Shown in pieces: positions 1,565 to 54,449 of a stretch of DNA of 54,449 nucleotides. The notes beneath the pieces are model-generated. The model searched no databases, was not told the DNA's origin, and saw nothing but the letters and a program-made list of their open reading frames with translations. The position numbers were made by a program, and so were the translations under genes. The DNA is from an uncultured virus (IMG/VR IMGVR_UViG_3300021387_000053) (Duplodnaviria > Heunggongvirae > Uroviricota > Caudoviricetes). Position 1 is the stretch's first letter. Each line of letters starts with the position of its first letter. Location of the stretch: the IMG/VR virus record IMGVR_UViG_3300021387_000053. One strand, given 5' to 3'.

Positions 1565-1900
1565 TTATATCGTTTCCCTCATCTTTGCACCGCATCCTGG
1601 GCAGTGATCGAACTCCAGTTCTTTCTCAAAGTTCTTTCCGTGCCATCCACATTTACTGCACTCGTAATGTCCGTGGAATTCAGGGGGCATCATCCCTTCC
1701 ATCTTTACCCAACAGGCTTTCTTAATCCCAAGGATTTCATCCGTCATATCACCTTCAACAACAAATTCAGTGTCGGGATTAGTGACATAAATATTGGTAT
1801 TGTCATATTGCGGGTTATAGAAAAAGTACAAGATTTGATCCGTATTAATCTACGTAGGAGTACTCTGATTCCTCTCTTTAACCTGAATAAACCTAGGCAT
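1565..1900 (-). CDS. hypothetical protein with C-terminal Zn ribbon; one in-frame TAG (1850-1852)
   Basis: ATG at 1900 overlaps the upstream TAA. Reads MPRFIQVKERNQSTPT*INTDQILYFF...CSKCG...CPGCGAKM. Confidence 0.75.
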
Positions 1901-5101: not shown

Positions 5102-5455
5102 TCAGAACACCCCGTTTACATGCGGATAAATCCTGTATGCGCCCTTCAACATTTTCGCTCCACAGTTTGGGCAGAACTTACTGCCCGACCACCGCATAAT
5201 ATTTTCAGGAGTAATATCTTCCCCGGTCGGCAGCCCATCGTTTCGACTACGGCAGACTGAACAAATCCACCCTGGAATACCCCAATCCATTCCGTCTGGA
5301 TCAAGAATCCATGTTCCTTCCTTCCGATCATAAAGTGTAACGGTCGGAGCGTCTGCGATAAGACTCGTCAGCTATTCGACAAATCTGGAATTGCTTTCTG
5401 TATTTGTCAGACAGAGTACATCCGCCATCAATTTGTCAGCATCAATTAATCTCAT
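5102..5455 (-). CDS. MRLIDAD-type phage Zn-ribbon protein; one in-frame TAG (5372-5374)
   Basis: Reads MRLIDADKLM...FVE*LTSLIADAPTV...GTWI...CSVC...FCPNCGAKM. The start overlaps the upstream stop (ATGA). Confidence 0.8.
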
Positions 5456-6550
5456 TTTTCTTCACCTTTTTTATTTATCCGTGCACCACATACGGCGCAG
5501 TATTTGGTTTCGATGCCCGGATACAGTAACTTTGTACAGTCTGGACAAACCCAGTCAACTTTGTGTCCTCTGTACATTGGAATCCACTGTATGGGTTCAG
5601 GCTCTTCCCGCTCCTTCAGAAATCTCAATATCGTCAACGCTTCGAAAGGAGAGAGAACAACGAAGTTCTTAGAAGTACCACGCCACATAGCACTTACTTG
5701 CTCTTCGAACTGCAAAATAAAGGCTTCTCGTTCCGTCACTTTAACTCATCCCATTTCCTGTATAACTTCTGGGCTTGCTTCCGGCTGATGTATCCAAGCT
5801 TAACCAGATTATCAACCGTCCTCTTCCTACCCTCGTCGAATCCGTTCCGATGACCTTCGTTGTACTGTCTCTGCTGTGCTTTGTAATAGTCAGTCATTTC
5901 TTCTTCGGCTCTCTTCCTGTATCCGAAGAACGAACCGAAGAGGGCAACACCAGCGAGGAACAGAAATACGGTAATGAAGGTCACGATATCTCTAATAATC
6001 TCAGTCATTCAAATCCTCATCCAGATCAAAATCCTCGTCCATTACATCAACTTCATCATCGCCATTACTACTGATGTACCAGTTTATACACAGCAGGATA
6101 ATGGCTACTATGACAAGGAAGATCTCTATCCAAGTATCGTTATTCATGCCGTTTCTCCTGATGTTCCTGTTTACCACAGCGGAGACACTCTCCATTGTGG
6201 TAAACGTGACCATGAATAGCTCCGCACTTGAAATGTTTAATTCCTCTGCAAAGCCATCCGTTATATCGGTCGTGCGTTACTTCGATCATTATGAACATGC
6301 TTGCTATGGTTGCGATCAGGATCAAAGCAACAACGATTTTTAATCCTGTGCTTACATTGACAATCATTCCTTAGTCCTTCGCTTCCTCACTGTAATTCTT
6401 TTCAATCTCATTTCTTGTGTTGTCGATCAGATCACACAAGTCGGCATACACACTCCAGTTATCTGGGCTGACAACAGGATGCAGAGTGATATCCGCAAAC
6501 ATTCTCATATCATCCAACCGTGTGAGGATAAAAGTTTTAAGACTCGTCGT
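5452..6550 (-). other. small hypothetical genes, several with a single transmembrane segment
   Basis: ORFs 5452-5739, 5736-6008, 6001-, 6140-6367 and 6371-; hydrophobic N-terminal stretches. Confidence 0.55.
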
Positions 6551-7036: not shown

Positions 7037-9874
7037 TTACTCCTTGTATAAAACCTTGAATATCTCACGAGTCTCAGGATTTTCATAAGCCTTCAACGTC
7101 AGGTCGAAAGATACTGATCTCTTTGTTGGGAGAGGAAAATGCTCTACCCCTGTAGGCCCTATCGCAGTAACTTCTCTAGTCTCACACTCATTGTTGAGGT
7201 TGAGCAATTCTGGTCTAGCCCAGACTGAGAAGTAATAGTATCCTTCGCCGACTCCTGTCTGTGTAACCATGCGGCTCGGTAACCTGAACACATACATCGT
7301 TGGATCTTTTTCTTCGAAATCAATCATTGTCAAATCAACAACTCTTGTTCCGCAGAACTGACACTTCAATCCGCTGACAGGAAGCGGACCCCCACAGTTG
7401 GGGCAGTTGGTTACTCGTCTGTTAGCCATCGCTCTGAAGCTCCCTAGCTTTTACTTTTGCAAACCGCACAATCATATCCATCGCAGCTTGAGTAAGTCCT
7501 GATGTGAATATTCTCAAGCCGACTGGATTCAGTTCGAAATCGTCTTCTTTCTCATTCCAGTCCAGAGTAGCTATTGAGTAGCAACTCTCATTAACCATCG
7601 TATCCTCAATCTTGTTGGTCTTGTCATTATAGGCAAACGTTTTATGCGGAGTACTGAAGCTTTGCCACTTCACAATATCGAAGTTCTTTATTCGGGTTTC
7701 CCGCTCTTTTCTTGGGAAGAAGTAGGTGAGGTCTCTGATTTGGAATCCATCGACTCTTTCTGTGTAATCCACTTAATCATCTCCTTTTTCATAGCGGATC
7801 TTTTCAACATCGCGGCATACTCTTTCATACCATCAATATGCTTGTCCGCAGCATCGGAAAAGAAGGAAGCAACTTTAATGAATACACCACTCAACTTCAG
7901 ATAAAAGGTCGATTTCCATTGATGGATTTGATATTTCAACTCGTGATACCAAGCGTAATTGTCATCCATAATTCTCTCCTTAAAGGTAGGTTGTCTCTTC
8001 GTCTACCTGATCGTCACTCGTAATCGTGATCGGAATCTCTGCGATGTCCGCCAGATTACAAGTCAGTTCATACTGCGTGTTAGGGGCAGCTCCATAGAAC
8101 GCATACAGTCCGCCGTGATAATCATCACAAACAACCTTATCTCCAGTGATCTTCCATGTGTTGTTGCCGGACTTGAATACTGCTCCGTCTCTCAGTTCGC
8201 CGATCTTAGCTCTCATACCGATGTGGCTGTAGCTCAGATCAACATCAGGGTAATCCGCAAGGAACTGTTTATACTTCTCAGGATATGTGTGAGCGAGAAC
8301 ATTGAACCAGACTTTCCGATGGTCTTGCCAACCTTTTACTGGAGCGGAATCAAAAATGGAAAAGGGAGCATATTTGTACAACCGATACAGAAGCTCGGAA
8401 GTAACATCTTCCCATTCAAGAACTGTAGTCAATCCACCAAACAGATTCGGACCCTTCCACCTTTTGTACTCCTCATCGTAGTAGATCCCGCAGTACATCG
8501 TACTCATCATCTTTGTTCCTACGGTTGCGATATAGTACCCAGTCGTAGGTTTCAAAGCATTAAAGGTATCCCGTTCCTTAATTGACTTAGCCCAGTCGGT
8601 GTACTTCATGGCTCTCTGTGAATAGCCGGGATAAGTTTCAATTTGACTATACGGACAGTCAGCTTTGAAGATTCCCGGAAGTCCAGCGCATATTCCCTTC
8701 TGATACAAAGAACATTCATCAGAGTGGGAGCAGTAAACCCGCTTCTCGTTCTGGACTTTGGTCTTCTCCCAACCACCGTAGATGTTGCAGTAAATCTCTT
8801 TACGTGTCTCCATCGGTCTTCACCTTCTCGTACAGTTCTTTAAGAGACTGAAGATATGAAAGTTGTGCTTCGCTTTCCGCTCCCCATGCCGTCCATTTAT
8901 CTTTGTACTTATCCCAGTAAATCAATGAATGCGGAGTAAACATCCACCGACTCATGTCATAACCAATCTCGTCTTCGAGAATTCTATATAGTGTACTCAA
9001 ATCTTCATCTGATATATCACGGACAATAATAATGCTTGTGTCGTTAATGTCGGCATAATTTGAAGGTTTCTTGTCTTCGCCCAGAAACGCAACATGGACA
9101 CGATTCAGGAAACTGCTGTTCTCGTGTTTTCTGGCTTCGTCCTCGTCCTCGAACTCCTGCCCGTCATCTGTAATGTAGATCGTTTTCTCGATCATATAAT
9201 CGCCCCCGGAACATGTCCTGTAATAACCCGCTGAACAGTAAGCCATGTCATTATTTGTTCAACTTCACGCCTGATACGCATCGCCTGTCTGTACTCAGTC
9301 GGTGACGAGTCAACCAGATCACGCAGCACATCCTGATAATGAGATGTATTACCGTATCCATCGTAGACTCTGATGAACCACTCTCCGTCACTGTAAATGC
9401 AGAAACAGAACACATGTCCCGGTGCACTCTTCAAGTCCTGTTCGTAGATATAAGCTTTCTCGCCCTTGTCATACCTGAAGTAGAAGTTATTCAGCAGAAC
9501 TTTTTTGGGCAGCCTACGAACTTTAATAGCGGAATTGTTTCCTCTTGCCGTGTAAGTGGTTACTGTCATTGCCCCGCTCCTTCTCTGGCTTTCTTTTCTG
9601 CCTTCTTTTCTCTAGCGAGTTGTAAGTTTCTGATACGATCTGCTCGTCCTTTATCGTCTACGGATACTTTCCTAGGGGGAGAAAGTTTGAACCAGGAAAC
9701 AGGAACTTCTGCACAAATACAGTGATCATTTGTTTCAGGGTTCTGAGTAATCCGCACAAGATCAGGATACTGTTCTGCAAGACTCCTGATCTTCTTGATC
9801 CAGCGGTTCTCATCAGAAGAGAAGTAAGCAACCTCTTTCGTCGTGTAATCGAATGTTGTTTCCATTCTCATCAC
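7037..9874 (-). other. seven hypothetical phage genes (7037-7429, 7422-7772, 7688-7969, 7980-8813, 8800-, 9192-9569, 9566-9874)
   Basis: Coupled ORFs with RBSs; no family recognised except an N-terminal Zn ribbon in 7037-7429. Confidence 0.6.
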
Positions 9875-10950
9875 CCCAAATAATTCTTAGTCAGAAGGTA
9901 GAACTGTGTGTAAGAACCGAAGTCGAACCAGTAACTTCCGCTGTCCATATCCGGCCCCATCATTCGGAGATAGGGGATAGTGTCTTCTCTTTTGCGGATA
10001 AGCTTACAGGCTTCGTCATCGTCTGCTACGTTTCCGGCGATCAGCAGATACTTATTGGGATCAGTCGGAAGCTCACCCATATATCCGCTGTATTTGTAGA
10101 GAGCGTAAGGAGTTTCTTTTACACCGGGAGAATTCTGCTTCCTCTTCTCATATTCCACGATGCGGTTCAGGATATAGAAGCAGTTCTGCAAGCACACCCC
10201 GTTGCCCCACATGCGATACTCCGCTGAATCAGAACCCTTGACTCCTTCTGTCCACCAGTCAGGGAATCCTTGAAGACGAGCACACTCCGTCGGGCTAAGA
10301 CGGCGAATAATATATTTACGATCCTTATTCTTATCGACGATCAGATCGGTATGATCTTTATAGTCCCGCTGTTTGAGAGTACTTGCTGTTCCGCTATTAC
10401 CGTACTCTCCAATCCGTTGCATATCATAGTATTCCATGTCTTCTTCTCCCTCTCTCACATGCATCACAAGCGGAACATTATTTCCACCAGTCCCCATCCT
10501 TGAGGAGAGGGTCTGGACTTTATCGTCTTCACAAATCTTTACTCTGCTGTCAGCGGGATGGTTTTCAACGGCATATGATTTCATCTCATCTGGACTCCTT
10601 TGTACAATCAACGCAGCGTCTCCGCCCTGTCCGTAGTGATATTTAGTAGTGAGGCTTGCGGAAGTTTCGGATTCTTCGTAGCCCGTACAGTTGCAGGATG
10701 TAGGGCGGTAGATCAGAACCAAAGGCCCATCTGCGCTCCCTTTCCTCAACTTATCAGTCAGCGTTGGGACTACGCCGTCTTCCGCAATACTGATTCTTCC
10801 GTCCATCGGGTGAGAATCAACAGGGTAACAAACTGCGTGTCGGTCAATCGTGTTCAGCGTGAACATCTCTCCGCTTTCAGAGTAGCCTGTGCCACGATGG
10901 GAAGGGCGTGAGCCGTTACCTTCAAGGATGATTACCTTCTTCTTCTCCAT
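9871..10950 (-). CDS. C5 DNA cytosine methyltransferase, C-terminal polypeptide (target-recognition repeats, motifs IX/X, extra C-terminal domain)
   Basis: IRRLSPTECARLQGFPD and YRMWGNGV; repeated TL/SL-type TRD segments; ATG at 10950 behind GAGGTGG. Confidence 0.85.
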   Translation of the reverse strand: MEKKKVIILEGNGSRPSHRGTGYSESGEMFTLNTIDRHAVCYPVDSHPMDGRISIAEDGVVPTLTDKLRKGSADGPLVLIYRPTSCNCTGYEESETSASLTTKYHYGQGGDAALIVQRSPDEMKSYAVENHPADSRVKICEDDKVQTLSSRMGTGGNNVPLVMHVREGEEDMEYYDMQRIGEYGNSGTASTLKQRDYKDHTDLIVDKNKDRKYIIRRLSPTECARLQGFPDWWTEGVKGSDSAEYRMWGNGVCLQNCFYILNRIVEYEKRKQNSPGVKETPYALYKYSGYMGELPTDPNKYLLIAGNVADDDEACKLIRKREDTIPYLRMMGPDMDSGSYWFDFGSYTQFYLLTKNYLG

Positions 10951-11356
10951 CGTTGACCACCTCTTCAAGTGCTTCTCGCAACATATCGGGAAGCGTTTTC
11001 CCACGTTCCCTCGACCGTCGGAGAATTCCCTGGCATGCTCTCTTGCTCAAACAGTAACGAGCAAGATTCGGCTGATCCGTCTGTAAGATTGATGAGAGCG
11101 TACACTCTACGTCTACGCTGGGGTGTTCCCCAGTATGCACTATTGACTGTCCGCCAAGCCACTGTGTACCCATCTCCCATGATGGCTCCCGCTGGTTGCC
11201 ACTTCCCTTTTTCAGGGAGAGGAATTGAAACTTCTCCGCCTTTGATCGAGCAGAAGTTTTCGAGAGCCGTGCGGAAGTCTTCGCCTTTGTTGGACGAGAA
11301 GAGTCCCGGCACGTTTTCGAAGCAGACATATTTTGGATACTCTCCATTGGTTGCAT
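10922..11356 (-). CDS. alternative-frame methyltransferase accessory polypeptide (M.EcoHK31I beta-like); true start uncertain
   Basis: TLSSILQ...YCLSKRACQGILRRSRERGKTLPDMLREALE, encoded in a different frame inside the MTase gene. Confidence 0.65.
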   Translation of the reverse strand: MQPMESIQNMSASKTCRDSSRPTKAKTSARLSKTSARSKAEKFQFLSLKKGSGNQREPSWEMGTQWLGGQSIVHTGEHPSVDVECTLSSILQTDQPNLARYCLSKRACQGILRRSRERGKTLPDMLREALEEVVNDGEEEGNHP

Positions 11357-11666
11357 CCCTCATTTCTTTTATGATGCGGATTGCTTCAAAGAAAAGACTG
11401 GAACGCTTTCCGTCCTGCAACCCCACCATCTTTCCGGCAGTGGAAATATCCTGACACGGACTCCCGAAACAGATGATATCCACTGGCTCAATCTGAGACC
11501 CGTCGATCTTGGTAATGTCTCCAAGGTGTTTCATATGCGGAAACCTTGCAGAGGTAACACTGATCGGATACGGTTCAATCTCCGAAGCCCAGACAGGCTC
11601 AATGCCGTTCATAGCCCCGGCAAGAGGAAATCCCCCTGATCCATCGAACAAACTTCCAAGCTTCAT
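10965..11666 (-). CDS. C5 DNA cytosine methyltransferase, N-terminal catalytic polypeptide (motifs I-VIII)
   Basis: SLFDGSGG, GSPCQD, ENVPG and QRRRRVY motifs; ends in TGA before the TRD. Confidence 0.9.
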   Translation of the reverse strand: MKLGSLFDGSGGFPLAGAMNGIEPVWASEIEPYPISVTSARFPHMKHLGDITKIDGSQIEPVDIICFGSPCQDISTAGKMVGLQDGKRSSLFFEAIRIIKEMRDATNGEYPKYVCFENVPGLFSSNKGEDFRTALENFCSIKGGEVSIPLPEKGKWQPAGAIMGDGYTVAWRTVNSAYWGTPQRRRRVYALINLTDGSAESCSLLFEQESMPGNSPTVEGTWENASRYVARST

Positions 11667-12969: not shown

Positions 12970-13518
12970 TTAAATTTTTTCTAGGTATCCCTGTTGGATC
13001 AGCCAAGCAATCCCCACGGCAACAGCATCGGACTCATCGTCGGTCTTATACTGCTGTACTCCTACGTACCGCTCAACACAACGAGCCACCTCATCCTTGT
13101 CTGCTTTATGGTTACCAGTCACTGTCTTCTTGATGGATACCGGGGCGATCTCGTCGAAGGTTGCCTGTTTATAACTGTATGCGTAAAGATCTGCAATCCC
13201 AGCTACTTTAGCCAGAGCTATCGTTTCATTCGGAGTTCTGTAGAACCCACGCTCTCTAACCAGTACCATTCCTTCTGCGGACTTGAGATAGCTTTTGATC
13301 TCCTAGGCTATCTCAGCCAACATCTGTCCGTGTGCTTTCCTCGCTCCATGATTATCTACATTGGATTTGCGGAGTAGCTTTACCTCTTTTGTTTTCTTAT
13401 TAAATTCAAGCTACGCAAACCCTGGGCATCTCAGGGACTAATCCGCACAGAAAAGCAGGATAGTCGGAGACTCATTCTCATATGCGGATACTTGTCCTGT
13501 TGTCTATTCCATATCCAT
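12970..13518 (-). CDS. ruvC: RuvC-like Holliday junction resolvase; four in-frame TAG (13504, 13438, 13411, 13303)
   Basis: Read-through restores the N-terminal catalytic motif LFCAD*SLRCPGFA*LEF. Also VRERGF, IKKTVTGNHKADKDEV and DESDAVAVG. Confidence 0.88.
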
Positions 13519-13519
13519 T

Positions 13520-13855
13520 TTATAGACCAACTTTCTCAGGACGGGTATCATAAGCAAACATAAGTCTTACGATAGCATGGGCAAGATGTTCGTCACTTCT
13601 GTCTCCTGCGAGATATGCATAGATGTGGGCAATTGCATGGTTGAGATGGGATTCGTAGGGAATCTTTGTATAGTTCCTACTTTCTAAAGTCTCACCGTAC
13701 TTATCTGCTCCCTGTCTGGCAACCTCGGCAGCCGCCAAAAGAGCAGAAGGCGGGAGCAATTCGAATGCATACGGTGAAGCAGACTGCTTGCCGCCCTGTT
13801 CATTTTCTACGACGGGAGCGTCGGGCATTACGCCCTAAAGAATATTATCGTTCAT
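13520..13855 (-). CDS. dATP/dGTP diphosphohydrolase-like (DUF5664-type) protein; one in-frame TAG near the N-terminus (13835-13837)
   Basis: GADKYG...NY, HLNHAIAHI and HLAHAIVRLMF motifs; AAAGGAG RBS upstream of ATG 13855. Confidence 0.7.
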
Positions 13856-14025: not shown

Positions 14026-14277
14026 TTAACATGTAATCTTAGTAGAGTGAGTTTGCAAATCTGGGTTGAGCGTAATCTTATCGGAGTCTACTGTAATGTT
14101 GGTTACAGTCTCCCCACAAGTAGGACTTACGTAAGGATATGTAGGATAGGTTATAGCCCATACCTCATTCTTTGCTTTACGATATCCCCTGTCATACGCA
14201 TCATTCTACATCTTTTCAAGCTCTTCCTTGGTAATATCTACCTTACCGTCCTTCAATGTAATAACAACAACATTCAT
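14026..14277 (-). CDS. hypothetical protein; one in-frame TAG (14206-14208)
   Basis: RBS GAGGTG. Reads MNVVVITLKDGKVDITKEELEKM*NDAYDRGY... and fills an otherwise empty gap. Confidence 0.75.
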
Positions 14278-15095: not shown

Positions 15096-15256
15096 GTTTT
15101 ATCCTCCTATTTAATCCACCAATTTATCGCTAGGCTCAAGTTTGAATTTACGCTCACCAGTTTCAATATTGTAGTAATATTCAAACCATCCATCGTAAAA
15201 CTTTCTCCACATAACAAACCCCTATTTAACACAACATGTATTATTCATAAGTTTCT

Positions 15257-15772: not shown

Positions 15773-17034
15773 TCAGACACAATTTGACGGAGCATAGTAG
15801 CGTTTCGCCTGTTCGATCTGTCTATCGGCAGACCACTTTGAGATACGGGTAAGATATCCAATTACTCTTGTAGCATAGTCAAGATTCTCAGAGCCACACT
15901 TGGGACATCTCTCAAGCTTATGCTTCGAAATGTGACCACAATCATTACAGATTGTATTGGGGATATTGAAGGTAAAATAATTACAACCCGTCACAATGGC
16001 ATATCTCAGCAGGAATTCATACTGGGCTTTACTCAAATGTTCGTTGAGGTTACAGTGCAGAGCAGAACCGCCATCAAGGTACTGAGTAAATTCTCTGCCG
16101 TGAAGCCTGAACTTATCAATCGGGTTTGTCTTCTCGTCTTCCACAATATAGAAGTAAGAGTTGTAACAGGGACGAGGCACGTTATATCCATCTTCTTTAT
16201 CCCACTTGGCATTCTTAACTCCAAGGTTCTCCGCCGGTACGAATTCGGTATTAAACATCCTATCCGCAGTTTTATCCTGCTTATTTAGTTCATAAATTGG
16301 TTTGAGGATCGCATTAATATAAGCCTTGTACTTCTCATTGTTACCGATATCAACACCAAGATACTCAGCACCTTCAACTGCACCATTAATGCCAACAGTA
16401 AGGTATTCTTTCTCAGGGCTAATAAAGCCAGCGTCATAAATCGAGATCATATGCTTACGAGTCATATCCAAGAGAATTTCATTGTATGCGGAAAGATACA
16501 TATGGATAAGTTTTGTCTGCTCTGCTACTGCATAAGAAATATCTTCAAGATTTATTAACCAATTACTCTCTCTTCTAACCTCTCCAATATCTTCTTCACC
16601 AGGCTTACAGCCTTCGAGTTCACACGTTATATTCTGAACAAGACGGTTCAGGTTCATCGTGATCACGCACTTACTGCCAGTAGAAATACCACCAGCACCA
16701 AGCGTATAGGAGAACTGGTTCTCTGTGATACCATTGCGGAGGCGGCAACAAGAAGCGAGGCTGTCAACACTATCGCTTGTGTATGTAAAGAAACTATGTC
16801 CTTCCGCATACATCTCGGCAGCAAAGTCAGCCCACTCTTTATCCATGAAATCTTTTCCGTCATTAAGAAGGGACAAGGTCTCCACGGGGAAAGTTAAGAC
16901 TTCTTTGAGTCGCTCTCTGTTAAACCATTTCATAAACCGCTTCTGCAACCAACTAACGGATTCCCACTGCATCGGTGTACCGTCAGGGAAAACGAAGTCT
17001 TCAAAGAGCGCATTGAAATAATATTTATCAAAAT
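15773..17034 (-). CDS. nrdD: class III ribonucleotide reductase, exon 2
   Basis: LASCCRL, EFVPAENLG, LDGGSA, Zn-binding CNDC/CPKC and the glycyl-radical loop TRVIGYL. Confidence 0.93.
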
Positions 17035-18053
17035 CCTTTATACCCTCGGTTTCCCGATATTTATTAGGGGAGTAGACTATATCTTCATCCATAAAGTAAT
17101 GGATGTGTGGCACTTCGTTATGTAGAATTTCACTACATAACTACTCCATTAAGGATAGTCGTTACACCTTACGAGTATTCCCGTCTTGGCACGGTGTTGT
17201 CATGCGATACCTATGATTTGATCAAGTCTATCTTTTATAGGTTCATCAAATCTGATTTCATGTAAAAGGATATTGTGCGTCAAACAATATTCCTTTTTGA
17301 TCTTATCTGTTTCTTCACGTTGCATTTTGCCAAAGTATTTTGAACTATCTGGCGGATAAAAATGCTGTTCTCCTTGATATTCAATCAATGCAACAAGCTG
17401 ATCGTCATCCATTATGGCAAAGTCAAATGGAAGTTTATTGCCTTTGGAATTAATGCAATCATCGAACTCGTATTCACGAATATAATGAATATTATGAGCA
17501 TCCAAATATTCAGCAACTTCTCTTTCACCATGTGACTTTATGCAACCACAAGATCTTGTTGCACCATCTTTCTAATGAGTAGAACGTGCAATAACTACGC
17601 TACCGCAATCACACTTGCACTTCCACATTTTTTGATGTTGTCCACAAGGTAAAACATAATCTTCAGCTTGTTCGAGAACTGTTAATATGCCGAATCTTTT
17701 CCCAGTCAAATCAGTTCTAACGCCTTTATGAAACTGTTTACAGCCGCATGATTTTGTTTTTGACAAATTACAACCAAGTACTATTGTTTCATTGCCACAA
17801 TCACATCTGCATTTCCAACGAACAAGTTTTCCACTATCAAATACGGCATCAGAATCTCTCTCAATAACTGTTAGATTTCCATATCTTTCTCCAGTTCTAT
17901 CTTTAAAATTATAATTCATGGGGCATTCCCCCTCATTATTTGACGCAAGGTATCGTTTAGAGTTTCACCGTTAGCTGTAATTAATACAACACCCTACATT
18001 TGTAGGTTCACCACATTATCTTATATCGTCACCAATATAAGGCCCTATTGTTA
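17035..18053 (-). mobile_element. group I intron (1019 nt) in nrdD carrying a homing endonuclease
   Basis: The 5' exon ends in U with P1 GCCU/GGGC; P7 GACTAT/ATAGTC; terminal G. Splicing gives VFWNVA-Y-FDKYYF in frame (642-aa product). Confidence 0.88.
17200..17919 (-). CDS. intron-encoded homing endonuclease (CxCDCG/SCGC Zn repeats plus Vsr/EDxHD-like nuclease); one in-frame TAG (17572-17574)
   Basis: Two track ORFs in the same frame separated only by TAG: RSTH*KDGATRSCGC. Nuclease motif LPFDFAI...IEYQGEQHF. Confidence 0.85.
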
Positions 18054-18720
18054 AGGCAACATTCCAGAAAACACTTTGGCTTCCACGGGCAGCGGCTGGC
18101 TGATTAATGCTATACACTACTTGTTGGAAATGATCTGTGATGACCATGTCGATAGTTGCATGTCTGTTAGACAGATCAACCACATCACTTGCTCTCAGAT
18201 AATAGTCATTTCCGTATTGCTTTCTCAGAAAATAATCCATGTAAGAGATAAACTCAGGAGTAGCAACTGCACCTTTAAGTTGTGCAGCCACAGCGAATAC
18301 GAGATTTACAAACCCACCGCAGAATGAGTCAAGATTCTTCGGAGCAATCGTTGTGCCGGAGAGCTTAGTCATTCCATCAAACAGATAAGGATACAGGGTA
18401 ATGGAAGCACAATAAGGAACACCCGCAAAAGGGAAAGTACTTTCGTCGTGCGTATAAATCTCATGCTTCTCAAGCTGTTCAATGTACTTATCGGCAATAG
18501 TCTCGCCGTACATTTCTTTCAGCTTGTCATACATCATCAAGCGGTTGGTTTTAATGTTCTCTTTCTTGTGTACTTCGGGGGACATAGTAGCGATGTTCTT
18601 TCCGCTGACATTAGAGTTAGCATCTACTTCGCTACCTGATGCGGTATTCTGAGCACCAATAAATTTGTTGATAAAGTTAATGTTCTTTCTTCTTAATTCG
18701 TAATTTGGTGCAATAGCCAT
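18054..18720 (-). CDS. nrdD: class III ribonucleotide reductase, exon 1
   Basis: EVDANSNV, IYTHDES, PYCASI and QVVYSINQPA motifs. Confidence 0.9.
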
Positions 18721-20068: not shown

Positions 20069-20273
20069 CTTCTGTGAACTCCTCTCCAAGCAGTTCGTCG
20101 GGGATTGTAACGTACATACCGCATTCACATTCCCCAGTCTCTTTAAACTCTTTACACGGACACTTGTTATCCTTATTGCCTTTCTCTTTATTCAGGCAAT
20201 AACCGCCATTTGACTTAATCCGCTTCTTCAGCCCTTTGCGGAATTCCGTGTTAGGATTCTTTACTATCGCCAT
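20061..20273 (-). CDS. ferredoxin-thioredoxin reductase catalytic-subunit-like small protein
   Basis: GGYCLNK...CPCKEF...ECECGMY. Confidence 0.6.
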   Translation of the reverse strand: MAIVKNPNTEFRKGLKKRIKSNGGYCLNKEKGNKDNKCPCKEFKETGECECGMYVTIPDELLGEEFTEDD

Positions 20274-20928
20274 CGTTGTTCTCCTCTGTTGCATCGGGAA
20301 TAATATCGTCAAACACTGTGGGATACATCAGCTTGGCTTTTTCGAGCAGCTCACACATAACGATCCTGCACTCAGGATACACATCCTTCGCTGTCCGCAG
20401 TTGGAATACATGTCTCCAAGATCTAAGGTTACCGCTCATTATAATCTGAGTAGCTGTAGAGTTAATCAGCACCTTACGTGCATCCTCATTAATTGCTCCT
20501 GCTTCCTTCAGATACTTGTAACTTTCCTCGCAAGCCAGACAATCTTCCTTCCAGAGACTGTACAGTACATGAGCTTTCTCTTCTCCGTACCTCTCAAAAT
20601 GCGGGACACAGAATGCAATATCGCCAGTCTTACATTCATCCACATATCTCTGACTGCGGATTGAGAAGCTGTTCAGTCGATGCCTGGTCAACTCAGCCAT
20701 AACATCTCGTCCAGTAACAATCTCCGCAATCATAAGCGAATGTTCAATCGGAGACTCATGTCTTTTCTTGAGCTAGCCGGGGATCATCTTTTGGTAGCTC
20801 GTCTCAGTCATCTTGGCTGTAGTGTTGTAGCAATTCCTTGCCGCATACTCACACAGTTTCTACATTTCCACTCCTTGTTCTGGCGTTGTCGGAAACTAAA
20901 TCCTCGCACAAGGCTGCAGTTCAATCAT
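20251..20928 (-). CDS. thyX: flavin-dependent thymidylate synthase; three in-frame TAG (20896, 20860, 20773)
   Basis: RHR-x-S-x-RY motif (LTRHRLNSFSIRSQRY). The N-terminal ARNCY and HESPIEH motifs are reached only by reading through TAG. Confidence 0.92.
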
Positions 20929-21338
20929 TCATTTTCACTCTCCTCGAAATCGTCCTCATCAAAAATATCTTCAGTGTCAATAACTTTAGGGGCTGGCTTA
21001 GGGAATACAATCGGAGTCTCTGGGATAATAACTTCCGTGTATCGACACTCGTTATCTTCGGCGGGTGGGTCGGCAGCAAGTCGAATGCCGGAGTTGAGAC
21101 GCTTTCTCGCAGTCTCCAGTGACAAGTGGGACATAACCACATCTCCATTTGTCAGCAGGAAGATAGAGTTCAGAGTCTTATTCATACGGCAATCCCAGAC
21201 TTTTCTGTTCTTCTTAGCCCAGTCAAGGGTACGATCTGCACCTCTTGTGCCTACTCTGATTACACCCTAAATACAATCCGTGTTGAATGTATTCCCATAC
21301 CCTACATCTACAAAGTATGGAAAAGAAATCTTATTCAT
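20925..21338 (-). CDS. RemA/DUF370-like regulator with acidic tail; one in-frame TAG (21267-21269)
   Basis: FVDVGYGNTFNTDCI*GVI...SIFLLTNGDVVMSHLSLETARKRL resembles the DUF370 pattern INIGFGN...IIAIV...SAVQPET. Confidence 0.65.
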
Positions 21339-25972: not shown

Positions 25973-27832
25973 TTAGATCGGTTCGTTGGTTACTGGCGGT
26001 GGCTTGATCTTGTAATCGTCCAAAGAGTCTGCTCTTTTTGCCGGATGAGGTGCTCCATTGCGATCCCAATTGCAAACCAGCGTGTCTCCGACATCCGCCT
26101 GATAAATTCTTCTTGATGCGGGGCAGAAACAGAACTCCGTGATTGGGAAACGTCCTTTTTTGCGGTTCTTCAGCACCTTAAATGCCTGATTTTCGACGAG
26201 AAACACATTGTCGGCTGCCTTTACAGACATGGAGTTGCCAGCAATATCGTTCAGCGTTACTTTTGACCGTCCAAGAGGGCTTGTTTTGCGAAGATGGGCA
26301 ACGATTACAACGTGGACGTGGTGCTTCAATGCGAAGTGCTTCATCGTTTGAATGATTTCACCTTGTACTGCATTGTCATCACCAGAAGAACCCCACCCAA
26401 GGCTCATCAAGTTGTCTACAAAGAACAACTTTGAGCCGTATCTTCGAAATGCTCCCTCAAAAAGGTCTGTAACCGCCTTCAGAATACCTTCCGGCGTATC
26501 CAATTCATTGTCGTAGACCTTCAGCTTGCCCCTGAAGTGTTCGCAAATCCGCTTATACACGTCATCCTCAAGCCAAGGCTCATAACTCTTCTCGAAATCA
26601 TCGTATCGGAGTCCGACATACTCATCTCCGGCAGCCTGAAGCGTGATCCACTCCTGAAAATCCTCTGCGGAAAGTTCGCCGGAGTACACACAGACTGGGA
26701 AACCGTGTTCAATTGCATTAATTATCGTGATCCCCATCGAAGTTGACTTACCAGAGCCAGGATCGCCCGTCACAATAGTAATTCCACCCTCTTGAAGACC
26801 GCCTGTTGCCTTGTCCAAGCCCGGAATACCGATTGGAATGCGAACTTTGTTGTTAGGATCGCCACGCCGGATGTCTGCGAAGTCGATCAGACCCTTAATT
26901 TCGCAGGATTCTGCGCTTCCGATCATCTCCAACACTTTTTCCTTGCCATACCGCACAAGAATCTCGTTTGCATCCTTGCAAACCGATCCATCAGGACGGG
27001 TAGGGTAGGCTTCAATCGGAATGAACTGCAAATTGCAGATCGAAAGCCTGTTTTTTAAGTCCTCAACCATTTTCTGACCGGGTTCATCGGCATCCCCGAA
27101 CAAAATAATGGTGTCAACCATCATCAGGAACTCCCAACAGTTGTCGATCCACGTCAGATTGTCACATCCGCACGGAACTGAGGTCACGTTAGTGTATCCG
27201 GCTTCAAAAACAGCCATTGCATCACATTCGCCCTCGGTAATCACGAGCGGAGTCTTCAAAGAGATATCGTCGAGGTTCAAAAGGATCGGTTCAGTGTTTG
27301 AAACTTGCCATTCCTTGGGTTTCCCGTTGCCTTTAATGAATTTTTCAGGCGCACGGAACTTCTGGTACACAATCTGACCGTGTCGAATGAAGTTGAAGAC
27401 GATATTTCCCTGGGTATCGCTGTTCAAATGGAACGCATTGATCGTGTTGTCCGAAAAACCTCTGGTATGAAGGTAATCACGGCACTTTTGTGTCAGTTCC
27501 ACCGTCTCTGTATTTGGAAGGGTGTAATTTTTCTTCGAACTCGTCATATCCATCTTTGAAAACCTGAACCTGATCGGTTCTTTGCCTTCCATTTTGAGTA
27601 AATCGTTGATTGTTCCTCGGAAACCACATGTTCCACGCTTACAGTTCGCAGCACCGTTAGTAGAGAGTGCGAATGTCCACATATCTCTGTGGCTACCGGT
27701 TCCGCCGTTACAAATGGGACAGTATTTAGCAACAAACTCTGTCCCATTCACAGTGTGGCGTGTTTTGTATTCCCCTAATGCGGTTCTGGCATAATCCATT
27801 ACAGTTTCTTCAACAGATTCCATAGTGGACAC
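25973..27832 (-). CDS. T7 gp4/Twinkle-like primase-helicase
   Basis: Zn finger CPIC, TOPRIM ITEGECD / GDADEPG / KDANE, Walker A GDPGSGKS, VDNLM and VAHLRK. Confidence 0.92.
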   Translation of the reverse strand: MSTMESVEETVMDYARTALGEYKTRHTVNGTEFVAKYCPICNGGTGSHRDMWTFALSTNGAANCKRGTCGFRGTINDLLKMEGKEPIRFRFSKMDMTSSKKNYTLPNTETVELTQKCRDYLHTRGFSDNTINAFHLNSDTQGNIVFNFIRHGQIVYQKFRAPEKFIKGNGKPKEWQVSNTEPILLNLDDISLKTPLVITEGECDAMAVFEAGYTNVTSVPCGCDNLTWIDNCWEFLMMVDTIILFGDADEPGQKMVEDLKNRLSICNLQFIPIEAYPTRPDGSVCKDANEILVRYGKEKVLEMIGSAESCEIKGLIDFADIRRGDPNNKVRIPIGIPGLDKATGGLQEGGITIVTGDPGSGKSTSMGITIINAIEHGFPVCVYSGELSAEDFQEWITLQAAGDEYVGLRYDDFEKSYEPWLEDDVYKRICEHFRGKLKVYDNELDTPEGILKAVTDLFEGAFRRYGSKLFFVDNLMSLGWGSSGDDNAVQGEIIQTMKHFALKHHVHVVIVAHLRKTSPLGRSKVTLNDIAGNSMSVKAADNVFLVENQAFKVLKNRKKGRFPITEFCFCPASRRIYQADVGDTLVCNWDRNGAPHPAKRADSLDDYKIKPPPVTNEPI

Positions 27833-47803: not shown

Positions 47804-48339
47804 GAAGGAAGGGGAGAGATTAGGCAACCTGCTTCATGGAAGCGATAGCCTGCTTGAGTTCTTCCATGGTGCAACCGAGAGACTCAAGCAGTTTCTGTTC
47901 TGCAGACTTCTTGCCAGACTTTGCAGGAGCGTCTTTGATTTCGACCTGAGTGTAGTTGGTCATTCCGCAACCGAGATACTGGGCAGGATCAGCGATAGTC
48001 TTCTTGAACTCAGAGAGAGAGATGCACTTGAACTGACCTTCGGACTTCTTGAAGGAAGCGACTTTGCAGAGCATGATCTGCACAAAACGCTCAGAGTCGA
48101 CCTGTTCGCCGTCTTCGGCGACGAACATATTTTCCAGACAGTTCTTGAGAGCGGTTTTATGTTCGGCGTATTCTTCACCAGACACGAGAGCGTTCATAAA
48201 GTTCATGAAGCAGTTGTAGGTAGAGAGAGCATAACGACGACCTTCGTTACCAGAGATGATGAGATTGCCCGCCTGATTGACCTTTGCATACTTATTGAAC
48301 ATAGTAAATACCTCCTAGGCTAAATTTTTACGGTTTCCT

Positions 48340-49000
48340 TGCCCAAGGGAAACTAGCTAGAAAAGGCAACGTGTGCCTTCTCTAGCTAGCCCCCCTTATG
48401 CTACTCTTGCGCTTGCTTTGCCAGTTCGCACCAAAGAGACGGATTGTGCAGGAACGTACCCGTAGCGCACAAGCCTAGCATGGAGCGCAACCTTCCGGCA
48501 CACGCAAGAAAAGCGAGAGAGCTAGCTTTTTTAAACTGGTCACAATGGTAGTTGTAACAGCCGTATTGCTACGACTTCGCACACTGTCTCTTACATCCTG
48601 CAAGCCTTGTTCCACTTCCATAGCTCGACCCAACTACTTCCACTTCACGCACCAAGCTATCAGTAAGGCATATGTACGGCATACGCTGAAAGCAAAGTAG
48701 GCATACACTCCACACCAAGCCCTCACGCATTGCGAACCAGTGGCAACCCTTGTCTCACACAAAACGACACACGCCGATTGTTTCACCGAAATAGGCGGAT
48801 TGCTAGCCTTGCGTACCTACTCGTTCCCCGTAGGGGAATGGACACGCTATGCAATTGGAAAGTCGCAAGAGCCCAACTTGCACGTCCCACGGACTATCAA
48901 ACAACAACGTCGACACGCCGGAGCATCTGCTCCTGTCCCCGCCCTCCATGCGGGGAGTTGTTCTTGGCTGTCTGCCGTGCGGATTTATCATCCGCAATGC
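48340..49000 (-). ncRNA. candidate large structured RNA or 5' leader
   Basis: No convincing ORF, GC-richer than the AT-rich DNA to its right, and many hairpins, including a GCAA-loop stem whose G-U pair favours the minus strand. Confidence 0.4.
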
Positions 49001-49150
49001 CATAATACGCCGTTCAGAGAGCATGATTTTATTTTTTGAAACAAAATATTATTTTACGTTTCAATTTATTTTTTATTTTGCGGAAGCCCCTGGGCGTTCT
49101 ATTCCAACACCTCTCCCGATTTTGAAACCTATAAATATATACCTAACGCC

Positions 49151-49190
49151 TGTGGATAAAACTGTGAATACTTTTTATAACTTATCCACA
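49151..49190. promoter_or_regulatory. DnaA-box cluster (candidate replication origin)
   Basis: TGTGGATAA 49151-49159 and TTATCCACA 49182-49190 (both perfect, inverted), plus degenerate TGTGAATAC 49163-49171. AT-rich flanks at the strand switch. Confidence 0.65.
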
Positions 49191-49659
49191 GGAAATATAT
49201 AAATATATAAATTCCGCAGAATAGAAAAACATACGACCTACGTCCCTGAACCCAGGTCTCTAACGCTGGGATCTCTATATCGACTCCCGATATAATATCC
49301 TTCTAAAAATTGACCTAAAAATAGAGGTGTACTATCTACCTAGTACACCTCAGTGTAATGCTCCTTATATCTATATATAAATATATATATTATATAATAC
49401 GTTATATATTAAAAGATACGTTAACGAACTATAAAGCCTACTAGGTTATTAAAGACCTACTAGGCTATATTAATATCTCCACGTATGTTAAATTATTTTC
49501 TTTATGCGGAAATTCTTTCTCAGAGAAAATATTCCGCAACGGATAAATATCTCGACATACATCTCTCGTTCCAGAGTTTAGCTAATGACGGGGGACTCAC
49601 AATTCCGTCAGACACTGCTTGTCCCGGAGCTTAAATAGAAAATTGTTCGTCCCCCTATT

Positions 49660-50115
49660 ATATATACTACCCAACTTTGTTAGTTATATCTAACTACTGT
49701 ACATAGTATTTTTTCTATACGGAAAGAGAGATATCCGTATACGGGTTAAATAAAAAATACAGTGCGTAACTGTACCTATGTGCAGCTTTTATCAGGCGGG
49801 GACTCACTCATAACTCGTCTCTCGTTCCAAAGCCAGGAGCAAAATCGTGAGTCCCCTATATATTATAGTACCCAACTTTGTTAGACATGACTAACTATAT
49901 CTGAGTACTTTTATACGGGTCTGAGTAAGAAGTCGATCTACCCGGCGGAGAGAATTCGAGCCGGGTATTATATATATGGGGTGCCAAAATGTTAGACATG
50001 ACTAACTACTTAACACAGTAAAAAGAGCTGCTCCTGGTTACAGACAGCCTGAGAAAATAAACGCCGTACTTATATGTTATATGGGGTGCCAATTAGTTAG
50101 AGTAGACTAACTATA
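49660..50115. repeat. four copies of (TA-rich)-CCAA-x-GTTAG-N6-CTAAC-TA
   Basis: Palindrome GTTAG-N6-CTAAC at 49679, 49880, 49991 and 50096. Confidence 0.8.
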
Positions 50116-50276
50116 TAATACGGAGTTTTGAGCAAGTTAAAATATCCTCTCGTTCTCTTTAGGGTCTATCTTTGAAGCCTTTATCTCCCAACGGGTTGAG
50201 AGAGGTTTTGCTGTGTTGAATACAGCAACTTTTTCTTTGCGGAAAATTTTTTCTAAGTCTAGGTTAATATCGTCAA

Positions 50277-52074: not shown

Positions 52075-52368
52075 ATGATGACGATTGTCGATATGAAGAA
52101 GCTTGAGACTGAACTGAAAGATGCTCAGTTAAAATATGAGAATGCGCTCCGCAGGAAGTCCGGCGTAGCCCAGGCGAAGGAGACACTGAAGAATCTCCTG
52201 CTGAATAACCTGAACAATATTGTCGGATGCCTTGGCAGACTTGCGAAATCAGAGGAAGAGGTCGCATGTTTGCAAGCTGCTCTGGATGACGCTGACGCAG
52301 AACTCGACAGGCTGAAGAAGTCTCCCAAGACGAAAAAGGGAGACGGTGCTGATGGCAAGAAAGAATGA
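52075..52368 (+). CDS. coiled-coil hypothetical protein
   Basis: Heptad-rich ORF. Confidence 0.65.
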   Translation: MMTIVDMKKLETELKDAQLKYENALRRKSGVAQAKETLKNLLLNNLNNIVGCLGRLAKSEEEVACLQAALDDADAELDRLKKSPKTKKGDGADGKKE

Positions 52369-52762
52369 CACGATTGTTGACAACTGGGGTTATGTACCGC
52401 TGAGTGAACCCCGAATCGTTGCAGGACTTATTATCCAGCGGAGCGAGTAGGATCGCCAGTATGACTAGTTGAGTTCCCCTTTTGGGATTATCGAATCTGC
52501 GGGAACTTCAATTATGGATACGGAAAGAATGTGTACGTTTATTGATCTGGATAACTAGATTGAGACGTGCGGACTTTCACAGTCAGAACGGCAGACAGTA
52601 GACATGTAGATGGACGGGTATGGGATGAGTGATGTGGCGGAAAGATATCAGATCGCAGTCGCTACTGTTTCCTCTTATTAGGACAGAGCGGTTGCTAAGA
52701 TCGTAGAAGCCAATAACAAACGTTGGGAAGAAGTATACAGCCCAGGTTCTCCCTGTGCCTAA
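52352..52762 (+). CDS. sigma-70 region-4-like HTH transcription regulator; five in-frame TAG (52448, 52466, 52556, 52607, 52679)
   Basis: Absent from the ORF track. Read-through gives 136 aa: FIDLDN*IETCGLSQSERQTVDM*MDGYGMSDVAERYQIAVATVSSY*DRAVAKI. Confidence 0.8.
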
Positions 52763-52807: not shown

Positions 52808-53515
52808 ATGGCTAAAGGCTATCACATTCATCTTCCTGACGGGAAGGTTCAAAGAATAACAATCCACGACGAGGAAGAGCGAAAGAGAATCTGTCAGGAA
52901 CTCCTCGAAGAATGGGGAGATTACTGTAACAGAAACTGGATTAATGAGGACGGGAGTCCGTATAGTCCGGGAGCTAAGGTCAAAACATTTCTCGACTCCA
53001 TTGCTATGGTTATGCTTCCAGAAGCAGCTTCAGAGGGCATAGAGACAGACTACAAGGATAAGATGCGGGGTAGCAGAGAAATTCCTATGTCATCGTGTCC
53101 CACCTATGTTGAAGATGTTGTGTACGGAAGAGTCAGTCCAAGCGGAAACGCTCAGGTTGCAGCCGATACCGACACATTCAGAAACACAATAGGGGCAGAA
53201 CCAGTCAAGACGAAGAAGAAGCCAAAGCAAAAGAAGGTTGACCGCTTCACTAAGTTCGAGATCTGGAAGAACGAGAACAGTGTCGCAGACACCCACAGGT
53301 GTTACGTCAATACAGATGGAGAGTTCAGTTTCCACGGGGTTAAGTATTCTCTCGTACTGGAAAAGCTTCCGCAGTATCAGGTTAAGGTTCTCCCGAACGG
53401 AGACGAGCTTTACGACATGGACTATGTTCTGATCGGAATCAGGAAGGACGGTACTGTGTGTTATGCGGACTGTACCTTCCATGATATCAGCCCGGAGTTT
53501 GTAAAGAGAGTTTAA
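52808..53515 (+). CDS. hypothetical protein
   Basis: RBS GGGAGG; 235-aa ORF. Confidence 0.75.
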   Translation: MAKGYHIHLPDGKVQRITIHDEEERKRICQELLEEWGDYCNRNWINEDGSPYSPGAKVKTFLDSIAMVMLPEAASEGIETDYKDKMRGSREIPMSSCPTYVEDVVYGRVSPSGNAQVAADTDTFRNTIGAEPVKTKKKPKQKKVDRFTKFEIWKNENSVADTHRCYVNTDGEFSFHGVKYSLVLEKLPQYQVKVLPNGDELYDMDYVLIGIRKDGTVCYADCTFHDISPEFVKRV

Positions 53516-53534: not shown

Positions 53535-53609
53535 GCGGGTGTAGCAGAACGGCCTATGCGGAACACTCTAAATGTTTGTCTTTTGTGGGTTCAAATCCCA
53601 CCACCCGTA
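53535..53609 (+). tRNA. amber suppressor tRNA, anticodon CUA, with tRNA-Leu-like body
   Basis: Acceptor GCGGGTG/CACCCGT with discriminator A; D arm GCAG-AACGGCCT-ATGC (A15, G13-A22); anticodon arm GAACA-CTCTAAA-TGTTT (CTA at 53568-53570); T arm GTGGG-TTCAAAT-CCCAC. Confidence 0.92.
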
Positions 53610-53613
53610 CTAT

Positions 53614-54001
53614 AAGGCACTAACAGCAACTTACATATATGATTTCTGTGCAATTAGAAAATATTATATAAGTGCCTTGACATTTATCGAACGGCGTATA
53701 CTGCAAACCATTACATAAATTTATAATAACAGATCTTTTACCTCTGTGCCATTGTATTTTATTTTTTCTACGCCGTGACTTTTTAGAACGATACTAACAG
53801 CAATTTAAAGAACAAACTTGAAATTTGCTTTTATACAGTATCGTGAATTTAATGCAAGTTTTTTATACGGTACGTACAGCAAATAAGCTTCAAGCAATAG
53901 ACTTTTAATCTATCAATTTAAGTACCGTGGATTATATTGTGTACGGCACACACAGCAACTCGCTTTTGCAATAGACTGTTAATCTATTTATTTCGTGCCG
54001 T
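53614..54001 (+). ncRNA. array of five stem-closed small RNA-like units with an AC(A/T)GCAA motif and anticodon-like inner hairpins
   Basis: Units at 53614-53678, 53691-53776, 53788-53844, 53867-53928 and 53943-54001; 7-8 bp closing stems that differ in sequence but stay paired. Confidence 0.75.
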
Positions 54002-54060: not shown

Positions 54061-54449
54061 ATGGCGAGTTATCTGAATAACCTCGTAACTGAAGCCTCGA
54101 AGTCTAGGACTGCGAACGGGGCTGTCGCTTATTCCACAACTCAGTCCGATTGTCTTGATCTGTTTTCTGAGATTGGGATTATGCGGAAATGGGATGACGT
54201 GGATATTGTTAGGGCTTGGGAGAAAGCCTGGGCAGAAGATAAACTGACTGCTCTTAAACTTCTCTTTTACGCCAGGGATGTGCGGGGCGGACTTGGAGAA
54301 CGCAGAGTCTTCCGGGTAATTATCTCTCATATCGCAGAGACCGACTCGACCCTCGCCAGACATATTCTTCCGCTGATTCCGATCTACGGAAGATTCGATG
54401 ACGTGTTGGAGATGATGACTGGCGGTGGAATGGATGACGATGTGGCGGG
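54061..54449 (+). CDS. DUF2828-family (TROVE/Ro60-like) protein, N-terminal part, truncated by the window edge
   Basis: TANGAVAYSTT, CLDLF, LKLLFYARDVRGGLGERRVF and YGRFDD motifs; RBS AAAGG. Confidence 0.8.
   Translation, partial: MASYLNNLVTEASKSRTANGAVAYSTTQSDCLDLFSEIGIMRKWDDVDIVRAWEKAWAEDKLTALKLLFYARDVRGGLGERRVFRVIISHIAETDSTLARHILPLIPIYGRFDDVLEMMTGGGMDDDVA

Follow-up and report, generated by a model that had tools for sequence, protein, structure and literature searches.

The closest described systems are the code-15 gut phages (the crAss-like, Lak, Garnet, Amethyst, Sapphire, and Topaz clades, and phAss-1). Like the phage analyzed here, they carry a CUA tRNA and no synthetase of their own, they are enriched for in-frame TAG in structural and lysis genes, and they have standard-code relatives nearby; unlike here, their TAG means Gln, whereas the present phage appears to read it as Leu. 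In the available text of earlier studies, no recoding other than TAG to Gln and TGA to Trp was seen (Borges preprint, 10.1101/2021.08.26.457843), TAG was assigned to Gln (PMC10607447), phage recoding papers gave Gln or Trp (PMC11210395, PMC12386605), and the isotypes predicted for 180 suppressors were Gln, Trp, Ile, and Tyr, with no Leu (PMC10879173).

In the literature searched, the main texts of largely open-access journals, TAG as Leu was found in eukaryotes and organelles only and in no phage. Green-algal and chytrid mitochondria read UAG as Leu (NCBI tables 16 and 22). Phyllopharyngean ciliates do the same with a tRNA-Leu(CUA), according to the available text of PMC11687900. These eukaryotic codes share with the phage the codon meaning and a Leu-derived CUA tRNA, but they are cellular or organellar and permanent, whereas here a virus would impose the code, presumably on a standard-code bacterium and against its RF1. 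For the tRNA itself, the nearest parallels are the type I tRNA-Leu(CAA) of Streptomyces coelicolor and the short-arm tRNA-Leu of phages (Daubenski, T5-like beppo, mycobacteriophage I3), with which it has in common a short variable region, A15-U48, and A73; it differs from them in its CUA anticodon, in a variable region of 7 nt against 5-6 nt (94 listed), and in C20a against A20a. tRNA-Pyl shares the CUA anticodon, but the tRNA described here differs from it by a canonical D arm, a 7-nt variable region, A73, and the Leu columns in which TAG lies.

The window, that is, the whole stretch of 54,449 nucleotides that was analyzed, comes from an uncultured virus and holds the replication and nucleotide-metabolism section of the phage; the 47 proteins scanned include DNA polymerase III alpha, a primase-helicase, NrdD, ThyX, dUTPase, RuvC, an RNA ligase, and an integrase-family protein. 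A sister record, G002 (119,416 bp, rated 100% complete), is about 95% identical across most of the window, and genome-wide statements below refer to that record, not to the window phage's own genome. The terminase and capsid of G002 show a distant likeness to those of SPbeta-like phages (24-34% identity). The features of the window that matter here are as follows.

1565..1900, minus strand: small ORF, TAG at codon 17 (TGG in the sister G002)
5102..5455, minus strand: zinc-ribbon protein, TAG at codon 28
12970..13518, minus strand: RuvC resolvase, four TAG (codons 5, 27, 36, 72); codon 27 is TAG in G005 and G006 too
13520..13855, minus strand: dATP/dGTP diphosphohydrolase-like gene, TAG at codon 7, uncertain, with an ATG at codon 10
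14026..14277, minus strand: small ORF, TAG at codon 24
15111..15248, minus strand: small ORF, TAG at codon 9, start uncertain
17200..17919, minus strand: HNH/homing endonuclease in nrdD, one TAG at codon 116
20251..20928, minus strand: ThyX thymidylate synthase, three TAG (codons 11, 23, 52)
20925..21338, minus strand: RemA-like protein, one TAG at codon 24, within the Pfam match 9-81
52352..52762, plus strand: 136-aa sigma region-4/LuxR-type HTH protein, five TAG (codons 33, 39, 69, 86, 110), which are five of its ten Leu positions
52808..53515, plus strand: 235-aa conserved ORF directly upstream of the tRNA, no TAG; homologues in G005, G006, G014, and G015 have one early TAG
53535..53609, plus strand: tRNA gene with a Leu-type body, anticodon CUA at 53568-53570, 7-nt variable region, A73, CCA not encoded
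53614..54001, plus strand: five-element stem-closed array with the motif AC(A/T)GCAA, adjoining the tRNA; three elements with anticodon-like hairpins
54061..54449, plus strand: start of a gene for a DUF2828 protein (PHROG 'RNA-binding protein'), no TAG; 482 aa in G002

The nrdD gene (15773-18720, minus strand) is split by the endonuclease gene; G002 lacks the endonuclease, and its nrdD is a single 642-aa frame; the insertion is probably an intron. A match to a C5 DNA methylase (9871-11666, minus strand) is split over the overlapping frames 10965-11666 and 9871-11004, as it is in G002. About 2 kb at 48300-50200 hold no convincing genes, and GC skew and gene orientation flip there; this is likely an origin or a divergent promoter region.

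ARAGORN found a single tRNA in the window, at 53535-53610 on the plus strand with anticodon CTA, and called it 'Pyl', its label for any CUA tRNA. Rfam RF00005 covered 53535-53609 over the whole model; its score of 54.8 bits lies above the gathering score of 29 (E 1.4e-10). The original prediction had read a full cloverleaf from these letters, and every feature that it listed was present. The acceptor has 7 bp with G1-U72 as its first pair; the D arm has G13, A14, A15, G18G19, C20, C20a, U21, and A22, with the combinations G13/A22 and A15/U48; the anticodon loop of 7 nt, with U33, is CU-CUA-AA; the variable region of 7 nt (53578-53584) has U48 as its last base; and A73 at 53609 is followed by CTA, not CCA, at 53610-53612. 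Energy folding of the tRNA alone was not better than that of shuffles (z -0.93), a test that often gives no signal for tRNAs. The 78-nt tRNA stretch was identical in three sister IMG/VR records, the flanks of which were 89-99% identical, and a C16U variant appeared in one of four sequencing runs. An exact 16-mer scan for the tRNA was set aside, since 21 of its 24 loci were chance matches to non-tRNA sequence.

In three RNA runs, each from a different study, contigs span both the 235-aa ORF and the tRNA but break off at 53751-53804, where a DNA run continues past; such contigs give a weak hint of transcription, as neither level, strand, nor true transcription can be read from them. A promoter and terminator scan showed no excess over shuffles. 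The array behind the tRNA consists of five elements of 57-86 nt, each shut by a 7-8-bp stem, with AC(A/T)GCAA after the 5' stem. The stems vary in sequence between copies and strains and keep their pairing, and in three elements a hairpin of 4-5 bp presents a loop that resembles an anticodon (UGA, UUU, and GUU; GCU in G003). The array, which precedes DUF2828 and differs in copy number in G002, looks like a set of putative anticodon-arm mimics; no similar cluster was found in G005, G006, or G014-G016, nor was one found in the literature searched.

We compared the tRNA with 74 distinct tRNAs (a partial set) from five candidate-host MAGs, 70 of which could be parsed and 4 could not. The set of A15-U48, G13-A22, and A73, which the tRNA carries, was present in all ten tRNA-Leu and in none of the 60 others, and its two closest host-type tRNAs were both Leu(CAA), at 71% and 68%. 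The proposal of a tRNA-Leu scaffold is thus supported. It was also true that a Leu(CAA) loop lies one substitution away, but this was not distinctive, as a Tyr(GUA) loop is likewise one change off. The class II long variable arm, 11-15 nt in all ten host-type tRNA-Leu recovered, is absent, which fits a type I form. Among cultured phages, the top full-length BLAST match was the short-arm tRNA-Leu(CAA) of Streptomyces phage Daubenski (73.6% over 92%).

Short-arm phage tRNA-Leu(CAA) could be sampled widely, with at least 120 stretches and at least 94 distinct cloverleafs. Among the matches listed, A15/U48/A73 occurred in 91/94 and G1-U72 in 55/94, the 3' end was not CCA in 56/94 and an encoded CCA in 38/94, position 20a was A in 89/94 and C in 2/94, and the variable region was 5 or 6 nt in all 94, against C20a and 7 nt in the tRNA of the window. 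By these statistics, G1-U72, the missing CCA, and the short arm are ordinary, and C20a and the length of 7 nt are not. The original prediction had pointed out G1-U72 and the CTA end and had taken the short arm as atypical for Leu, suggesting that it may tune charging efficiency; all three features are there, but they are common in this group. A20a, an E. coli Leu determinant, is absent from the tRNA and kept as A in the sister tRNA of G005-G007. A profile isotype classifier of our own ranked Leu fifth for the tRNA, but it called only 12 of the 94 listed CAA controls Leu; although it scored 62/64 in leave-one-out, it was biased to one-member classes, and we discarded it after the CAA control.

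Three other origins of the tRNA were rejected. A tRNA-Tyr-derived suppressor would have G15-C48, a long arm, and TAG in Tyr columns, against A15-U48 and a 7-nt region here (the host-type tRNA-Tyr reference being a single sequence), and a Gln-type tRNA would have G73 and U1-A72 in place of A73 and G1-U72. For tRNA-Pyl, RF00005 stayed the best match of its Rfam clan, the points of structure and codon position given above also speak against it, and no Pfam match to PylRS or pylBCD was found among the 47 window proteins scanned.

The clade to which the phage belongs has eight distinct CUA tRNAs, with A73 and U48 in all and A15 in seven; their variable regions are 6, 6, 7, 9, 16, 16, 16, and 17 nt, so that four keep a 16-17-nt arm. 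Judged by these features, they are different bodies with one predicted identity. Only 12 of 62 parsed short-arm viral CUA tRNAs carried A15/U48/A73, so most of these are of other types. The discriminators of 63 such tRNAs (L067-L161) were A in 44, G in 9, U in 9, and C in 1, on many different bodies, which suggests that further amber meanings may exist among phages. A related phage, L297, has four Leu-type tRNAs (2935-3009, 5944-6028), namely a short-arm UAA, a UAG, a CAA, and a CUA; the arm of its Leu(CAA) starts like the 7-nt variable region in the window, hinting that this short arm may derive from a truncated long one. In G002 (26864-26952, minus strand), L028 (6864-6952), and also G003 and G004, a tRNA of 89 nt, which ARAGORN gives as Ile, combines a class II body (long variable arm, G1-U72, A73) with the Ile/ATA anticodon UAU.

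We then examined how TAG is used in the genes. With a simple purpose-made caller, 19 in-frame TAGs were counted in 10 window genes, after one low-scoring call had been dropped and the full HNH frame restored, and 117 were counted in G002. No convincing TAG-ended gene was found in the window: under code 11, 3 of 103 genes end in TAG, all of them at most 36 codons long with low scores, and one is the cut HTH gene. In G002, the late blocks have TAG in 15/24 and 12/17 genes (8.2% and 6.7% of Leu codons) and the middle block in 15/118 genes (1.6%). The genes that contain TAGs include those for terminase, portal, capsid, and tape measure, and the same alignments of recoded relatives showed no interruption by TAA or TGA. 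TAG sites were common to independently assembled records in 17/18 and 23/23 cases. The CUA tRNA and in-frame TAG co-occur in the clade, and both are absent from the standard-code relative G016, in which 6 of 158 called genes end in TAG and no aligned codon is an in-frame TAG; in G014, with a CUA tRNA, 0 of 138 called genes end in TAG. From these in-frame TAGs, which lie in conserved genes that are otherwise unbroken, the phage is read as using TAG as a sense codon, with TAA and TGA staying stops. In G002 (93402-95425, plus strand), TAG seems to be the stop of a DNA methyltransferase gene; TGA comes two codons later, and an ORF of 245 aa follows. The two may be a restriction-modification pair in the standard code that was acquired recently.

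Among close strains, TAG changed once each to TGG, TTT, and TTG. Turnover between close strains was 1/18 for TAG and 133/896 for Leu codons, a low rate that we did not count as selection, because TAG has just one single-step Leu neighbour. Between distant lineages, shared TAG sites numbered 3/24 (p 0.011), 1/22 (p 0.14), and 0/23, and the odds ratios of rare TTA/CTA were raised too.

To see which residue TAG encodes, homologous proteins were aligned. In ThyX (65 homologues, two near-identical entries dropped), the 155 residues opposite the three TAGs were 72% Leu, 18% Ile, 1% Gln, and 1% Tyr. Among 146 homologues of the HTH protein, Leu stood in 126/143 at codon 69 and 84/143 at codon 86; codon 33 was hydrophobic (Leu 23/77), codon 39 variable, and codon 110 more often Phe (63) than Leu (44). 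In RuvC (119 homologues), codon 27 was Leu in 56/64, codon 36 was Val in 24 and Leu in 23 of 71, and codon 72 was polar. Two of the 11 scored window columns, RuvC 72 and HTH 39, are thus not Leu-like. Pooled over the 11 columns, Leu was best, followed at the given distance in ln units by Ile (-17.8), Val (-23.3), Met (-29.0), Tyr (-36.9), Lys (-38.6), and Gln (-38.9).

The same residue came out when G002 was compared codon by codon with four genomes that share 34-38% amino-acid identity with it. Opposite the TAGs of G002, Leu was the commonest residue in G005 (21/60), G014 (21/64), G015 (23/73), and the standard-code G016 (17/56). Leu was best in each of these G002-query tests, with Met or Ile second (-4.7 to -10.7) and Gln at -33 to -59; Met was behind Leu by just 4.7-4.9 ln units against G014 and G015, and Tyr was 37-53 ln units below Leu across these and the pooled tests. 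The reverse test from G005 to G002, with 19 sites, was weak (Lys -0.6, Met -0.8, Gln -2.9). In 43 more distant related loci, Leu was the top residue at 22 of the 31 G002 TAG sites with at least five relatives, and the relatives' own TAGs faced Leu in 75/178 cases and Gln in none (the loci being redundant). Near-invariant Leu columns hold TAG, with Leu in 43/43 relatives at terminase codon 53 and in 30/30 at portal codon 75. One window TAG faces TGG in G002, the single counter-example among 18 aligned sites. In-frame TAGs thus fell mainly in Leu columns in ThyX, the HTH protein, RuvC, and the G002 comparisons, which supports the TAG=Leu proposal, and we are highly confident that TAG means Leu in this phage.

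The tRNA may still suppress amber while being charged weakly, or ambiguously with Leu plus Tyr, Lys, or Gln, which would make TAG a leaky, mainly Leu codon. We consider this unlikely, although it is the strongest of the alternatives. U35 and A73, both in this tRNA, are determinants for TyrRS and LysRS (available text of PMC9976931), the tRNA has neither A20a nor a long arm, C20a is as rare as noted in listed short-arm phage tRNA-Leu(CAA), and polar or aromatic residues fill a few of the TAG columns. Against it stand the near-invariant Leu columns of terminase and portal and the tape-measure frame of G002, which holds 27 TAGs and therefore needs efficient reading.

We asked what could charge the tRNA so that TAG is decoded as Leu. 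LeuRS does not read the anticodon. The original prediction had held that host LeuRS could charge the tRNA, so that the phage would need no synthetase of its own (none lies in the window), and the absence of a Leu-, Gln-, or Tyr-type synthetase extended to five related genomes. PF00133, PF00749, PF00579, PF00472, and PF01743, the families searched for class Ia/Ib/Ic synthetases, release factors, and CCA-adding enzymes, had no match in G002, G005, G014, G015, and G016, four of which are at least 90% complete. A Jade-type module, in which the phage encodes a synthetase and a release factor next to the tRNA, was likewise not seen (0/5 genomes for the first four families). With neither a synthetase of these types nor a release factor found in the five genomes, charging probably falls to host LeuRS. 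In the available text of PMC9976931, the E. coli Leu determinants are A73, A15-U48, G18G19, and A20a, and neither the anticodon nor the arm, and truncated tRNAs remain active. In that of PMC6614811, Streptomyces LeuRS charges a tRNA-Leu with a 5-nt loop and E. coli LeuRS charges long-arm tRNA-Leu only, and the short-arm tRNA-Leu required a special LeuRS domain in Streptomyces. Given these determinants and the charging of a short loop, host maturation and charging by host LeuRS would be the simplest route.

On this route, host enzymes would trim the tRNA precursor and add CCA, host LeuRS would charge the CUA tRNA through A73 and the A15-U48/D-T core, and Leu-tRNA(CUA) would compete with host RF1 at UAG. 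Before the tRNA builds up, TAG genes would yield truncated products, so that the tRNA would be needed for the virion genes as well as for RuvC, ThyX, and the HTH regulator. C20a in place of A20a is the weak point of charging by host LeuRS. We have good, somewhat lower confidence in this part of the reading, namely that the TAG decoder is probably the phage-encoded amber-reading tRNA, of Leu identity and charged by host LeuRS.

An improbable alternative keeps TAG as Leu and changes the decoder or charger, with an amber tRNA of the host, a host that itself uses this code, or a phage helper of a novel family that enables LeuRS on the short tRNA. As to candidate hosts, among eight genome contigs that carry a related terminase, seven have Clostridia MAG titles (Aristaeellaceae, Ca. 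Faecivicinus, and others) and one has an Alloprevotella title, and binning is not proof of a host. Sequencing runs with at least half of the sampled words, a possible source excluded, gave 13 rows from 7 studies, mostly of bovine and sheep gut. The special LeuRS domain of Streptomyces (PMC6614811, available text) would also fit a helper, as would the conserved 235-aa ORF (no ESM Atlas match) and the DUF2828 gene, which lie on either side of the tRNA and to which no function is assigned. The alternative is weakened by the co-occurrence of CUA tRNA and in-frame TAG in the clade and the lack of both in G016, by the lack of a CUA tRNA among the 74 distinct tRNAs of the five candidate-host MAGs (a partial set), and by the spread of short-arm tRNA-Leu(CAA) in phages. 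We therefore keep to a phage tRNA charged by host LeuRS.

Public gene callers assumed that TAG is Gln (code 15) in close relatives, and Gln is its published meaning in phages. Public entries of close relatives (P0002, P0003, P0006, and P0073) carry Gln at Leu columns, and P0007 is a ThyX truncated under code 11. However, P0002, P0006, and P0073, which have Gln at the sites in question, also show Gln opposite Leu of the window and Leu opposite its TAG, so that their Gln is apparently an artefact of code-15 translation. Gln trails Leu by 33-59 ln units where G002 is the query and by 39 in the pooled test, and the tRNA has A73 and G1-U72 where a Gln-type tRNA would have G73 and U1-A72, so that a Gln meaning is highly improbable; judging from the alignments and the tRNA, the residue is almost certainly Leu and not the Gln usually assumed for such phages. 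An inactive relic tRNA, with the TAGs as nonsense mutations or assembly errors, would fit the missing CCA and the weak fold energy but has hardly any chance in view of the TAG sites common to independently assembled records, their presence in terminase, portal, capsid, and tape-measure genes, and the lack of TAA or TGA interruptions in the same alignments.

Finally, we asked whether the dependence on the tRNA serves as a timing gate. In G002, the tRNA heads a strand block in which DUF2828, three more tRNAs, terminase, portal, capsid, and tail genes follow. The most TAG-rich gene of the window, that of the HTH protein, lies two genes upstream of the tRNA. This protein matches the PHROG 'sigma factor' family (E 5.6e-8); its sigma-4/LuxR HTH domains were below curated cut-offs, its model was confident (pLDDT 89.8), and a fold search with the model gave nothing at E <= 0.001, only weak sigma-4/LuxR rows. 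For these reasons we call it a probable transcription regulator and at most a possible sigma factor. Of 14 more distant loci (redundant), 13 have one or more TAGs in the homologue, and in six of them TAG stands at the same codon 33; the homologues in G005 and G006 have none. ThyX is absent from G005-G008. In G014, in-frame TAG was found in just four genes (among about 1,780 Leu codons): RuvC, the HTH regulator, the homologue of the 235-aa ORF, and a small ORF.

TAG also lies early in genes. In the window, 13 of 19 TAGs are in the first 40 codons against a null of 8.0 (p 0.006), and the same count was 17/20 in the middle genes of G002 (null 8.8), 18/40 in G005 (6.7), and 13/16 in G015 (3.5), an excess that can be inflated by start-codon choice. 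Control Leu codons had first-40 ratios of 0.85-1.22, with the exception of CTA in the window (1.59). The bias was not significant in the late genes of G002 (17/96, null 12.7, p 0.078) or in those window genes that have 130 or more codons (8/14, null 5.1, p 0.054). The concentration of TAG in late genes, RuvC, and the adjacent HTH gene suggests a gate, and that it was selected for timing is plausible while falling a little short of probable. bldA (tRNA-Leu UAA) is a rare-codon control in Streptomyces; as with bldA, translation of a regulator would depend here on a dedicated Leu tRNA, but here the codon is a stop and the control would be a suggested one.

Taken together, and more tentatively still, an SPbeta-like clade in ruminant-gut Clostridia may possess a private one-tRNA TAG=Leu code, the tRNA-Leu bodies of which would have been rebuilt several times with the arm shrinking from long to short, and may use it as a translational switch: TAG would be kept in the HTH regulator, the 235-aa ORF, and RuvC even in lineages nearly without other TAG, and build-up of the tRNA would trigger the late programme. 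TAG=Leu would be a new codon meaning for phages, without a published precedent found, and using code 15 for every TAG-recoded phage would place wrong residues in public protein databases, as in three entries here. A recoding device of one gene fits the anticodon-blindness of LeuRS, and the natural series of CUA tRNAs with variable regions of 6 to 17 nt makes it testable how Firmicutes LeuRS handles short arms. Because one lineage keeps just about four TAG genes, the idea that recoded stops act as timers is testable as well.
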